A DNA stretch of 35,836 bases from a virus (IMGVR_UViG_2645727821_000018); one strand, 5' to 3'; positions 1 through 7,951 are shown, counted from the first letter of the stretch. Translations and numbers: made by a program. Notes: a model not told the origin generated them from the sequence alone.

Positions 1-327
1 ATGAGAAATATCGTCATAGCGAAGGAGTTCTCCAGAACACCTTTCGGACGTTACACAACGGATAGCCCACACAGTGCGGAAAGATTTCGTAGAGAGTTTT
101 TGGTGCCTGCGCTGAAGGGTACTGAACAGGAGATTGTGGTTGATTTTCGCGGTATAGCACTGGGTGTTGGTTCCTCTTTCTTAGAAGAGGCGTTTGGAGG
201 TCTCATCCGTAAGGAAGGGATACCTAAAGCCAACGTTAAAGCACGTTTGATTATAAAAAGTGATGTTCCGTTCTACAAAGAACAGATTGATAAATTTATT
301 GATTTAGCACAACCAGAAAGAGTATAA
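1..327 (+). CDS. Small STAS-like protein (resembles DUF4325-type proteins); ATG is at the window edge so the true N-terminus is not certain
   Basis: 108-aa ORF; the motif pattern GRY...F...L.PAL......VD..G......SFLEEAFGGL matches my recollection of STAS-like DUF4325 proteins. Stop codon lies 10 bp before the next gene, whose likely SD overlaps it. Lies outside the integrase, at the prophage edge. Confidence 0.45.
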   Translation: MRNIVIAKEFSRTPFGRYTTDSPHSAERFRREFLVPALKGTEQEIVVDFRGIALGVGSSFLEEAFGGLIRKEGIPKANVKARLIIKSDVPFYKEQIDKFIDLAQPERV

Positions 328-337
328 GAGGCGATAG

Positions 338-955
338 TTGATCAGTACGGAACCAATGTCATTAGTAGCACAAATAGGACAGTATTCGTGGTGTATCACA
401 GTAGTTAGCGTCTGCTTAGTTTTCATTGGATGGCGAGTTGCGTACAATAATTCTGTAAAACTGGCGACACGTTCTGAATCGAAATCAATTATTGATGCTA
501 TTTCAAAGTTAGTTATTGAAATTTCTGATATTTCTTCTAACTATTGGCTCAGTCAGACAACTCAACCTAAAATTAGAGCATCAAAGCATCGATTGTTAAG
601 GTTGCAAAAGGATAGAACAAAGGCTTCTGTTTCATACTTGTTAACTATCTTGGCTAAAGCTCAACAAGTTTCCAAACTGATTTGCATTTTGGAAAGCAGA
701 GGACTGTATATACCTGACGAGGTGTTCTCATCTGTACTAGAGAAAGCAACTCTGGATTGTGAGGTCGCTCACAAGCTTTCAGATGCCGATCGCCCGGTTA
801 AAGCACAAGAAGTAATTGATGCTTGTATGGGAGTTATCGAAGCGTTACATACTTCTTTTCAAAGGTACCACCCTCCCAAAAAGGATCGTACCTTTATGCA
901 AAGGTTAAAAATTTGGTTTCAAACAGTAGACGATTGGCATAATGACTTAAAATAA
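338..955 (+). CDS. Hypothetical membrane-anchored protein (one N-terminal TM helix, about 165-aa helical soluble domain)
   Basis: 205-aa ORF with a TTG start at 338 preceded by AAGAGG (325-330); an alternative ATG is at 356. Hydrophobic stretch CITVVSVCLVFIGW near the N-terminus. The 3' end overlaps the integrase stop convergently (947-955). No family recognised. Confidence 0.5.
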   Translation: MISTEPMSLVAQIGQYSWCITVVSVCLVFIGWRVAYNNSVKLATRSESKSIIDAISKLVIEISDISSNYWLSQTTQPKIRASKHRLLRLQKDRTKASVSYLLTILAKAQQVSKLICILESRGLYIPDEVFSSVLEKATLDCEVAHKLSDADRPVKAQEVIDACMGVIEALHTSFQRYHPPKKDRTFMQRLKIWFQTVDDWHNDLK

Positions 956-2119
956 AGCCTTTTTATCCTTGATACTTGCCCTCCCATCATACTCTTTCAA
1001 GTATTGTCCATAGTGCCTGAATAACATTTCAGGCCCTTTATGGCCCATTTGAGCCGCAAGCCAAAACAGGTTTGCTCCCCGGCTGATATGGCTGGTGGCG
1101 AATGTATGCCTGGTTTGATATGGGTTTCTGTAACGAATACCTGCTTTTCGCAATGTTGGCACCCATGCTTTTTTCCTAATTGCATCAGCACTTGCCCAGG
1201 GTTTATTGGTCTTTGGATCTTCAAAGACAGTAGCATCCTTCATGAATGTAAATGGCTTCTGGTTTATCAACGCCAACATTGCTTCTTCAGTCAGTTCAAC
1301 TTTACGGGTACCGGCTTTTGTCTTTGTTCCTTTGATAACTCCGACAACACTTGCGCTCTGAACATGGGCTGTTTTTCCAACAAAGTCGATATCATGCCAT
1401 CGTAGGGCACATAATTCAGAACTACGCAGGCCTGTATGTATGGCGAACCGGAACAGATTTTCCCATTGTTTGTTTCCGGCTGCTGCTAGTAATGCATCAA
1501 CTTCTGCTGGTGATAGCGGATCAACCACATAGCTGCTTTCTGCTTCTGACTTATCACTTTGGTAGCGCGAAGCTGTTACTAACGATACGGGGTTAATTTG
1601 AAGTACCCCATCGGTCACGGCTTCATCAAGTGCTGACCGTAGGAAAGATAACTGGTTGCGAATGGTTTTTAAGGTTGTTTTCTGGCTTTGAATCCACGCT
1701 TTCAGGGTTGCTGGTGTTAATTCACTTGCAGGGCAAATGTGAAGTGAGGCTAACGCACTACGGCATTTTTTATAGCCACCAATCGTAGAGGGTGAAAGTT
1801 TTCTTGTTTCGCAGATTTCAAGATATTCGTCCAGGTACATCTTTACCGTTTTGCTTGCAGCAGCATTACCAAAAATTTTCAAACGAGCAGAACGGGGAAA
1901 ATATTCTGCATAAATGAATGTTCCCCTTTCGATCTTATTATGGATTTCGCCGAGTGTACGCTCGGCGTATTTAATGTTCTTTGGTGTTACTTCCAGATTG
2001 GAAAGCGGCTCACGACATCTAACTCCTTTGTAGGTGAAAGTTATATTGATCGTTTCTCCCTGGTGGTGTTTCCTGATTGTTACGCCGCGCGGTAGTTTGA
2101 GCAGTTTTGTCTGGCCCAT
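947..2119 (-). CDS. int: Tyrosine site-specific integrase (phage integrase family)
   Basis: 390 aa; C-terminal catalytic region with conserved RHTFATS...GHK...RHY signature of tyrosine recombinases; followed upstream by an excisionase-like gene in the same orientation. Confidence 0.95.
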   Translation of the reverse strand: MGQTKLLKLPRGVTIRKHHQGETINITFTYKGVRCREPLSNLEVTPKNIKYAERTLGEIHNKIERGTFIYAEYFPRSARLKIFGNAAASKTVKMYLDEYLEICETRKLSPSTIGGYKKCRSALASLHICPASELTPATLKAWIQSQKTTLKTIRNQLSFLRSALDEAVTDGVLQINPVSLVTASRYQSDKSEAESSYVVDPLSPAEVDALLAAAGNKQWENLFRFAIHTGLRSSELCALRWHDIDFVGKTAHVQSASVVGVIKGTKTKAGTRKVELTEEAMLALINQKPFTFMKDATVFEDPKTNKPWASADAIRKKAWVPTLRKAGIRYRNPYQTRHTFATSHISRGANLFWLAAQMGHKGPEMLFRHYGQYLKEYDGRASIKDKKALF

Positions 2120-2327: not shown

Positions 2328-3218
2328 TTAACGAATAGTGTCGTTACTTTGAAGTACAGCAAATGCCATTAATACTTCTAAAGTATATCTTCTATAAAAT
2401 TTAACAAAACCAACATAGAAAACATAGACGAAGAAAAAGCTAAGCATTATTGAAAGTAAACTATAAAGATAATCACTATGAGTACATAATCGATAAATAA
2501 AGGTTGGAACTGATACCCAAAATGAAATTATAAAGATTAAACATATGTTTCTGCAAAAACCATATAATGCAACATAGTTTTGAATTTTTGTTTGATGTTG
2601 TTTTGAAAACTCATAAACATAATGATATGCCAATCTGAAGAGATCATCATCAAGTCCGTTTTTATCTTGTAATAATTGGCGATTTGTTATGAACTTTTTC
2701 TCATAACCTTCTTTGATCATTAACCATGTTGTATTAGCTAAATGAAATGGTAGAGATTGAGAATAACATAGTTTTTGTGTTATAAAATCCCATAGTATTA
2801 TTGGACATAATACGCATTTGATTATGCGATTCTTTATTTTTGTTTTTTTATCAGCGCTTCTCTCATCGCATGATGGGCTACAAATGCTTTCTGAGGTATC
2901 TATCAATTTTTTAAATAGATATTTGGAAGGATATCCTAATTCTTTATTCATGTATTTTTCGATAAAAAATGCTGACGTGATAGAAATAAAATGTCCAGCT
3001 ATATAAGATATAATAACTATTGAAGCGTAGTTCAAAATGCCAAAGATTTGACTTTGACCTCTGAGCAATTCACTTAAGTCAATAACAATATCTAGATCGA
3101 ATGTCAAACCACAGAAATACATTAATAGGATAAAAAAACCACCTGGTATTAAATATCCAAGAAAGTCATAGAATGAGAATGGATTTTGATTCATTGTTGC
3201 TCTCCAATAATTTTTCAA
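2328..3218 (-). CDS. Hypothetical polytopic inner-membrane protein (AT-rich accessory gene)
   Basis: 296-aa ORF with several hydrophobic segments (for example FFILLMYFCGLTF, IVIISYIAGHFISITSAFF, ICLIFIISFWVSVPTFIY). Strongly AT-rich compared with flanking phage DNA. Sits directly downstream of xis in the leftward operon. Confidence 0.6.
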   Translation of the reverse strand: MKNYWRATMNQNPFSFYDFLGYLIPGGFFILLMYFCGLTFDLDIVIDLSELLRGQSQIFGILNYASIVIISYIAGHFISITSAFFIEKYMNKELGYPSKYLFKKLIDTSESICSPSCDERSADKKTKIKNRIIKCVLCPIILWDFITQKLCYSQSLPFHLANTTWLMIKEGYEKKFITNRQLLQDKNGLDDDLFRLAYHYVYEFSKQHQTKIQNYVALYGFCRNICLIFIISFWVSVPTFIYRLCTHSDYLYSLLSIMLSFFFVYVFYVGFVKFYRRYTLEVLMAFAVLQSNDTIR

Positions 3219-7387: not shown

Positions 7388-7951
7388 ATGAGGCTAATCG
7401 TGGGTAAGCATCACTGGAAAATAGAAAAACAGCCTGAGTGGTACGTGAAAGCTGTCAGAAAAACGATCGCGGCGTTGCCGGGTGGTTACGCTGAAGCGGC
7501 TGACTGGCTCGATGTAACAGAAAACGCTTTATTCAACCGCCTTCGTGCAGATGGCGATCAGATTTTCCCGCTGGGATGGGCAATGGTTTTACAGCGTGCT
7601 GGTGGCACTCACTTCATTGCTGATGCTGTGGCGCAGTCTGCAAATGGCGTCTTTGTGTCTCTTCCTGACGTCGAGGATGTGGACAACGCCGATATCAACC
7701 AACGCCTGCTGGAGGTCATTGAACAGATCGGCAGTTATTCAAAACAGATTCGTTCAGCAATTGAAGACGGTGTAGTGGAACCGCATGAGAAGACAGCAAT
7801 TAACGATGAGCTGTACCTCTCAATTTCGAAGCTGCAGGAGCATGCAGCACTGGTCTACAAAATCTTTTGCGTTTCAGAAAGTAGTGACGCCCGCGAGTGT
7901 GCAGCTCCGGGCGCCGTGGCGTGTCGTGACTGTGGAGAAACTAACGCATGA
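7388..7951 (+). CDS. CII-like phage regulatory protein (e14 YmfL-like)
   Basis: 187 aa, directly after cro; size and position match the CII-family regulator of e14-like prophages. Start codon uncertain (ATG at 7388 or GTG at 7400). The stop overlaps the next start as ATGA. Confidence 0.55.

Follow-up and report, generated by a model that had tools for sequence, protein, structure and literature searches.

The window analysed here, a stretch of 35,836 nucleotides of viral DNA (IMGVR_UViG_2645727821_000018), begins with two genes, B and C, that run towards the convergent integrase gene of a prophage (Table 1). Its sequence is found with 100% identity in E. coli chromosomes of the B2 type, among them those of ATCC 11775, UTI89, APEC O1, S88 and IHE3034 as well as others. 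The original prediction, made from the window alone, described a two-gene cassette: two open reading frames on the plus strand separated by 10 bp, the Shine-Dalgarno sequence of the second lying on the stop of the first, and the second converging on int with an overlap of 9 bp at the stop end of int. All of these features are present. The overlap of the AAGAGG with the stop of B indicates that B and C are translationally coupled, and at other loci too A and B, and B and C, abut or overlap. B and C are genuine genes and not chance reading frames, since homologues of both are conserved across many genera. RefSeq places the start of C at the ATG at 356, giving a protein of 199 aa; homologues of C at ~50% identity begin ('MI...') at the position that aligns with the TTG at 338, and for this reason we prefer the earlier start, as had been proposed.

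Table 1 Genes and sequence features of the locus, in order along the prophage (positions are those of the window unless another sequence is named)
Feature	Position	Strand	Details
Left copy of the direct repeat	L001:7755-7933		Outside the window
Gene A	L001:8085-8996 = NZ_CP033092.2 1217498-1218409	+	912 bp, 303 aa, WP_000154253.1; outside the window
Gene B	1-327	+	108 aa, ATG start, DUF4325 STAS-like, WP_001244589.1
Shine-Dalgarno sequence AAGAGG of gene C	326-331	+	Read from the sequence; overlaps the TAA stop of B
Gene C	338-955	+	205 aa, TTG start; predicted membrane-anchored protein, proposed effector
Prophage tyrosine integrase gene, int	947-2119	-	Pfam Arm-DNA-bind_2 and Phage_integrase; convergent with C
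Right copy of the direct repeat	L002:31287-31471		Outside the window

The cassette does not end at the first base of the window. In the chromosome of E. coli ATCC 11775/UTI89, a third gene, A, ends ~4-5 bp before that base, and the unit thus has three genes and not two, with a kinase gene just upstream. A further partner upstream, possibly a GHKL kinase-like protein, had been allowed for in the original prediction and this is what is found there, a protein with STAS and GHKL domains. The concern that the first reading frame might be the 3' end of a larger gene is also answered by the upstream sequence: B is a separate reading frame, in a frame other than that of A. Scans for promoters and terminators gave no more than chance would; a promoter-like site 33 bp upstream of A is no evidence on its own.

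The ssrA attachment site and the att-int slot

A direct repeat of 185 bp (91% identity, BLAST), consisting of the 3' end of ssrA and the region downstream of it, is present at both ends of the prophage. Rfam identifies a 3' tmRNA fragment at L001:7914-7928, and the tRNA and Rfam scans returned nothing beyond this 3' fragment of ssrA, which marks the att site; the intact ssrA is ~43 kb away, past the end of the window. In the left copy of the repeat, the homology to ssrA ends at L001:7933, with the att core at L001:~7909-7933. The left flank continues straight into ssrA in ST131 genomes. The end of the repeat and the ST131 junction together position the start of the prophage at about L001:7934, with the start codon of A 151 bp inside an element of ~43 kb. 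The prophage is e14/phiNP-like and the cassette lies in its att-to-int cargo slot, next to the att site in ssrA, in agreement with the location that had been proposed for it in an e14-type element. The GC content of the cassette is 36-46%, compared with ~54-56% in the flanking host genes on the glaH side. The repeat itself reaches ~150 bp downstream of ssrA and exceeds the usual length of an att core. Part of the tmRNA 3' terminus is missing from its left copy owing to a deletion of 5 nt.

This cassette is present in 118 of the 5426 complete E. coli genomes (~2%). In ~295 further E. coli genomes, the integrase is 93-98% identical and the homology to the window breaks at ~984, that is, within the last codons of int. 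The same slot is occupied in E. coli MY1-8 (L028:2199-4911) by an ABC-type ATPase (AAA_15/AAA_21) together with a methylase that matches PD-Lambda-5_B at 1e-123, in the Citrobacter phage phiNP (L027:1087-2874) by a related AAA ATPase, and at two other loci by an orphan of 259 aa (L029:4141-4920) and by ParA with two orphan genes (L030:2785-4707). A second allele of the triad occupies it in 10 E. coli genomes, with identities of 52, 70 and 42% for A, B and C, respectively. This allele (L003-L006:7001-8889, for example NZ_CP083478.1 2164426-2166314) is found in E. coli and Salmonella beside an integrase that is ~96% identical, and the combination of a divergent cassette with so similar an integrase points to replacement of the cassette and not to gradual divergence. 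Judged by location, the att-int slot of the ssrA prophages behaves as a hotspot for defence cargo.

Two other parts of the element should be mentioned. Between xis and yfdR, on the minus strand of the window at 2328-3218, there is a gene of low GC content (27-32%) for a multi-pass membrane protein of 288/296 aa. The protein belongs to phrog_12528, a family of unknown function, and gives a weak match in PADLOC (E 1.4e-5) to Csx27, an accessory protein of type VI-B CRISPR; against the NCBIfam Csx27 model, it scores 14.9 bits where the cut-off is 65. Different small genes are found at this position in sibling prophages, so that it looks like a second cargo slot. At the right end of the element, past the end of the window, the genes between the tail-fibre invertible region and ssrA (L002:25542-30860) comprise a truncated recombinase, a DUF262 (GmrSD-like) gene, a DinI-like pseudogene, a gene for a LEM-3-like GIY-YIG protein and two orphans. 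This stretch may represent a second region of cargo or defence genes, or what is left of another island.

Linkage of the three genes and properties of their products

The order kinase (A), STAS protein (B) and membrane protein (C) is intact in 27 of 27 related loci, of which 24 were checked by tblastn and three (L031, L032 and L034) were read from gene tables. The loci were recovered through homologues of A, and only those with enough downstream DNA are counted. They come from 16 genera or lineages: Escherichia, Salmonella, Klebsiella, Yersinia, Providencia, Pectobacterium, Enterobacter, Rouxiella, Serratia, Budvicia, Pluralibacter, Photobacterium, Rheinheimera, Oceanospirillaceae, Haemophilus and Colwellia. 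The triad thus spans the Enterobacterales to the Vibrionaceae, Pasteurellaceae and Colwellia, and it is still complete in Haemophilus and Colwellia, where the identity of A is as low as ~30%. The co-occurrence of B and C, and their association with a GHKL kinase, had been put forward as a point to be checked in the neighbourhoods of homologues; in these loci, B and C are always accompanied by the STAS-GHKL kinase A.

Most of the loci are accessory slots of prophages, with at least four further accessory positions of prophages in other genera, and the remainder include chromosomal islets. In E. coli and Salmonella, the triad is in the att-int slot of prophages with an Arm-DNA-bind_2 integrase, and in Klebsiella it is again in the att-int slot, beside an unrelated lambdoid integrase. 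A Providencia prophage carries it directly between the lysis and terminase genes. In Yersinia and Pectobacterium, the triad follows the tail-fibre genes and precedes the gene of a polyvalent MuF/LPD protein, and in an Enterobacter prophage it is at the tail-fibre end. The chromosomal islets are found in Photobacterium, beside an IS4 fragment, and in Rheinheimera, between NERD-domain genes. Two neighbourhoods contain other genes of note: in Pectobacterium (L034:2097-3826), the triad is next to a pore-forming colicin and its immunity gene, and in Enterobacter (L032:8981-10671), it adjoins a umuDC-like pair. The recurrence of the triad in differing accessory positions of prophages makes it a mobile unit. 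Homologues that behave as housekeeping genes with fixed synteny were looked for, as these would have spoken against a mobile cassette, and several different prophage slots were found instead. The triad is a real, conserved and mobile three-gene module. A search of 50,697 sequenced phage genomes by tblastn with A and C gave no match, and a plasmid search gave only two weak A-like matches, in Pasteurella and Acinetobacter. PHROGs holds families for all three proteins, each of unknown function; PADLOC-DB v2.0 (5027 models) has no family that matches A, B or C at E<=1, and an NCBIfam scan of the three gave no match.

A is annotated as a 'hypothetical protein'. It has a match to HATPase_c_2 that is below threshold (22.9 bits), and the alignment of its homologues contains the invariant GHKL motifs (N box, E155...N159; G1, D201xGxG205; G2, G243xG245). 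From the match and the motifs together, we conclude that A is a STAS domain fused to a serine kinase domain of the anti-sigma type. The protein begins directly with the STAS fold and has no HTH at its N-terminus. Its best structural matches are the anti-sigma factors SpoIIAB, RsbW and UsfX, and its profile searched against PDB sequences gave one marginal match, to RsbW, at E 0.38.

B consists of a STAS domain only. Its profile match to Pfam PF14213 (DUF4325) is 51.9 bits (E 6.2e-14) over positions 1-58 of 64, well above the gathering threshold of 23 bits for this family, and on this sequence evidence B is a STAS-like member of PF14213, in line with the original prediction. A TPFGR motif near its N-terminus is invariant, as is the GSSF motif in 12 homologues, and the candidate phospho-acceptor, Ser58, is within the invariant motif GSSFLEEAFGGL. 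A search of PDB sequences with B gave chance matches only. DUF4325 receives only incidental mentions in the literature; a 2017 paper describes one PIN clade that is transcriptionally coupled to DUF4325 genes.

The predicted structure of C (pLDDT 80) has a single N-terminal transmembrane helix, at residues ~15-35, which is continuous with a bundle of four helices. This agrees with the earlier description of the second protein as having one transmembrane helix and a helical domain of no recognisable family, and searches of Pfam, NCBIfam and PADLOC with C were indeed all blank. The topology prediction is N-out/C-in with a positive-inside bias, and the bias together with the single transmembrane helix would put the four-helix bundle on the cytoplasmic side, that of A and B. 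The signature motifs of the family are GW..Y.N...ATRSESK..D, TLDCE and F..HPP. Its profile finds nothing among PDB sequences at E<=10, and the fold resembles only generic four-helix bundles, including the sensor domains of histidine kinases and chemoreceptors. No domain fusions of C were found in 151 representatives of the family, which is small and unannotated, and C is not a PIN nuclease. We also considered C as a Cys-His enzyme and rejected this: C141 is invariant, yet the Yersinia and Photobacterium homologues have Y in place of H178.

The three proteins differ in their conservation. Across 12 loci, the mean identities are 40% for A, 50% for B and 28% for C; in each of the 66 locus pairs, C is the least conserved of the three, and in 61 of them B is the most conserved. 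The usual pattern in toxin-antitoxin systems is the reverse of this, the toxin not usually being the component that evolves fastest. The fast evolution of C would suit a sensor or a determinant of specificity no less well than a toxin.

Comparison with VapKSC, CapK-CapS and other known systems

VapKSC is made up of VapK, a STAS-GHKL kinase, VapS, a STAS antitoxin, and VapC, a PIN toxin (Chambers et al., EMBO J 2026, PMC13373217). The operon gives ~2-log protection against phage Bas42, and VapK is proposed to phosphorylate VapS on Ser48 and so release VapC. The S48A substitution in VapS abolishes phage protection, and the phosphomimetic S48E abolishes the binding and neutralisation of VapC (PMC13373217). 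CapK, a kinase with HTH, STAS and GHKL domains, is activated by ssDNA from DNA damage and forms with CapS a transcriptional controller of immune operons (PMC13373217).

Using the VapK and VapS sequences in Appendix Table S2 of PMC13373217, we find that VapS matches PF14213 at 62.7 bits and is therefore of the same Pfam family as B. In a profile of 12 B homologues, the GSSF of B aligns with the ASPF of VapS, so that Ser58 falls at the position of Ser48 in VapS. B is accordingly proposed, by analogy with VapS, to be the kinase substrate and the switch, with Ser58 as the candidate phospho-site. The relationship of A to VapK is more distant. The A profile gives a weak match of 14.8 bits to the single VapK sequence, and alignment of the A family with 26 proteins of the VapK family by hhalign is collinear over 267 columns, covering both domains, with E 1e-4 and a probability of 58%. 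The same alignment pairs the region of F58, an invariant aromatic residue in the STAS helix of A, with a conserved F of the VapK family; this is the one feature of A that would speak for an activation by ssDNA. A and B share their architecture with VapK and VapS and, judging from the sequences, probably a distant common ancestry; because the similarity between A and VapK is weak (14.8 bits; 58%), their common architecture could have arisen by distant or parallel assembly. The STAS domain of A was also considered as a phospho-acceptor in its own right and rejected, since A has S, T or G at the aligned position, with G in the Salmonella allele, and VapK has R, P or N.

Like VapKSC, the triad is a three-gene operon ordered kinase, STAS protein and effector (in the triad a proposed one), and it sits on mobile or defence-associated DNA. 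A, like VapK, combines a STAS domain at the N-terminus with a SpoIIAB-like GHKL domain and is without an HTH, and B, like VapS, is a DUF4325 protein of ~110 aa with a conserved serine at the aligned phospho-site. The differences are equally clear. A is only distantly related to VapK, is placed in a different PHROG (phrog_3364) and has invariant motifs of its own, RWWQC and GRGNGSEDIK; B lacks the long C-terminal helix of VapS and has the invariant TPFGR. Above all, the third protein of the triad is a membrane-anchored four-helix-bundle protein, where VapKSC is defined by a PIN nuclease. The triad is for this reason not to be filed as VapKSC, despite the agreement in the kinase, in the STAS serine and in gene order. 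Formally, it is an unnamed sister design of VapKSC with a new family of putative effectors, which by analogy would work like a kinase-gated toxin-antitoxin system. A literature search, which included PMC13373217, found no membrane-effector version of a kinase-STAS system.

The resemblance to CapK-CapS lies in the combination of a STAS-bearing GHKL kinase with a STAS substrate that has a conserved phospho-serine (in B a candidate only) and in the association with immunity loci. Unlike CapK, A has no N-terminal HTH, and unlike CapS, B has no C-terminal wHTH; nor is there an immune operon downstream, where only C and then the convergent int are found. The triad also differs from SpoIIAB-SpoIIAA and RsbW-RsbV in that A carries a fused STAS domain and the module is found on prophages with a membrane protein, and among the Pfam families listed for the neighbourhoods studied there is neither a Sigma70 nor a PP2C/SpoIIE family. 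In its position between att and int, and in the variability of this slot, the triad is like the att-int cargo of e14 (lit and its neighbours) and the P2/P4-type hotspots, and one sibling prophage has the methylase that matches PD-Lambda-5_B in the very slot of the triad. The proteins are unrelated to e14 lit, to the P2/P4 cargo and to PD-λ-5, so that here the likeness is one of location and logic only.

Proposed mechanism and alternative readings

The gene order and linkage, the folds, the catalytic and acceptor motifs, the predicted topology of C and the mobile, variable slots are the observations that an explanation of the triad has to accommodate. Our preferred reading, to which we would give a probability of about 0.5, is that of a membrane effector under the control of a kinase, which serves defence or abortive infection and acts in the manner of VapKSC. 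In the resting lysogen, unphosphorylated B would be bound to C and would keep it inactive. A cue from infection or DNA damage would activate A, possibly through ssDNA bound between its STAS and kinase domains, and A would then phosphorylate B on Ser58. Phospho-B would let go of C, and C, once free, would perturb the inner membrane by oligomerisation, depolarisation or leakage; the resulting growth stop or cell death would abort the infection by the superinfecting phage. From the likeness to VapKSC we thus infer an anti-phage function, the toxicity of C, the trigger, a kinase activity of A on B and the binding of B to C. It counts against this reading that the similarity of A to VapK is weak, that C has no recognisable toxin domain and is the least conserved of the three, that PADLOC v2 has no match for A, B or C and that none was found in the 50,697 phage genomes. 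A trigger based on DNA damage would, moreover, fire at the prophage's own induction too, which complicates a purely host-defence reading.

A different role for C has to be weighed, that of sensor or anchor in a partner-switching module, where it would signal membrane stress, the injection of phage DNA or a similar event at the envelope. In that case, the output would come either from A as an anti-sigma-like binder or from B through a host or phage factor whose gene lies elsewhere. C is the fastest evolving of the three, as would be expected of a part that contacts variable features of the phage or envelope; the four-helix sensor domains of histidine kinases and chemoreceptors are among the many generic bundles that its own resembles, and the best structural matches of A are true anti-sigma factors. 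However, the bundle of C is predicted to be cytoplasmic and not periplasmic, which leaves few residues outside the cell and is poorly suited to envelope sensing. None of the neighbourhood gene tables has a gene for a sigma factor, a PP2C phosphatase or any other output alongside the triad, and the fact that the triad moves between genera and unrelated slots as a self-contained unit argues for an output that is built in. On balance, we regard a sensor role for C as unlikely.

The triad could also serve the life cycle of the prophage itself, with a DNA-damage kinase freeing a holin- or antiholin-like C to time lysis or induction or, alternatively, with the triad killing cells that fail to complete induction and playing no part in host defence. 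The ssDNA from DNA damage that activates CapK (PMC13373217) arises from a stimulus that also induces prophage repressors of the LexA type, such as the one carried here; C is predicted to be a small inner-membrane protein, and in Providencia the triad directly separates the lysis and terminase genes. At most loci the triad and the lysis cassette are well apart, the triad being in att-proximal or tail-distal slots, and it is also found in chromosomal islets that have no phage genes. Sibling prophages lack the triad and have cargo of defence type in its slot, and the present prophage already has a holin, an endolysin and a lysis protein of its own. Taken together, these points make a role in lysis or induction improbable.

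We consider it slightly more improbable still that C brings about superinfection exclusion, blocking genome injection or another step at the envelope without death of the host, with A and B merely tuning it. A small single-pass inner-membrane protein encoded by a prophage is a common design for proteins of the Sie/Imm type, and C is such a protein by prediction, encoded next to int. To our knowledge, however, the known exclusion proteins act constitutively and need no kinase and STAS switch, whereas the strict linkage of the three genes and the precedent of VapKSC point to an activity that is triggered and normally restrained. A decaying or functionless hitch-hiker, as might be suggested by the lack of an assigned function and the presence of the cassette in only about 2% of complete E. 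coli genomes, is very hard to reconcile with three reading frames that are intact at every locus across genera, down to 20-30% identity, with catalytic and signature motifs that are invariant and with a sequence that is 100% identical in many B2 lineages.

Returning to the kinase-gated effector, we suggest tentatively that the triad is an undescribed anti-phage or abortive-infection system in which single-pass membrane effectors of a new family are controlled by a STAS-GHKL kinase of the CapK/VapK type together with a DUF4325 STAS switch. Descriptions of the kinase and STAS trigger go back no further than 2026 and give it two outputs, namely a transcriptional repressor and a PIN toxin; a third output that acts on the membrane would make the kinase-STAS pair a modular sensor in bacterial immunity. 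It would in that case be a general plug-in trigger for at least three unrelated outputs: repressor, PIN nuclease and membrane protein. The ExPEC/APEC prophages (UTI89, APEC O1, S88 and the E. coli type strain) would be using the triad as exchangeable cargo between the ssrA att site and int, and a function would be gained for DUF4325, for phrog_3364/phrog_30059 and for 'hypothetical' genes of UTI89, APEC O1, S88, IHE3034 and ATCC 11775. The triad is small (1.9 kb) and is present in tractable strains, and the predictions made for point mutants (S58A/E in B, N159A and D201A in A) make the scheme directly testable.

A last observation concerns the wider DUF4325 family in phages. B matches only positions 341-439 of the 441-position profile of phrog_5816, and from this partial match it follows that phage proteins exist in which DUF4325 is the C-terminal part of a much longer protein. 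These long proteins are possibly fusions of a kinase with a STAS domain.
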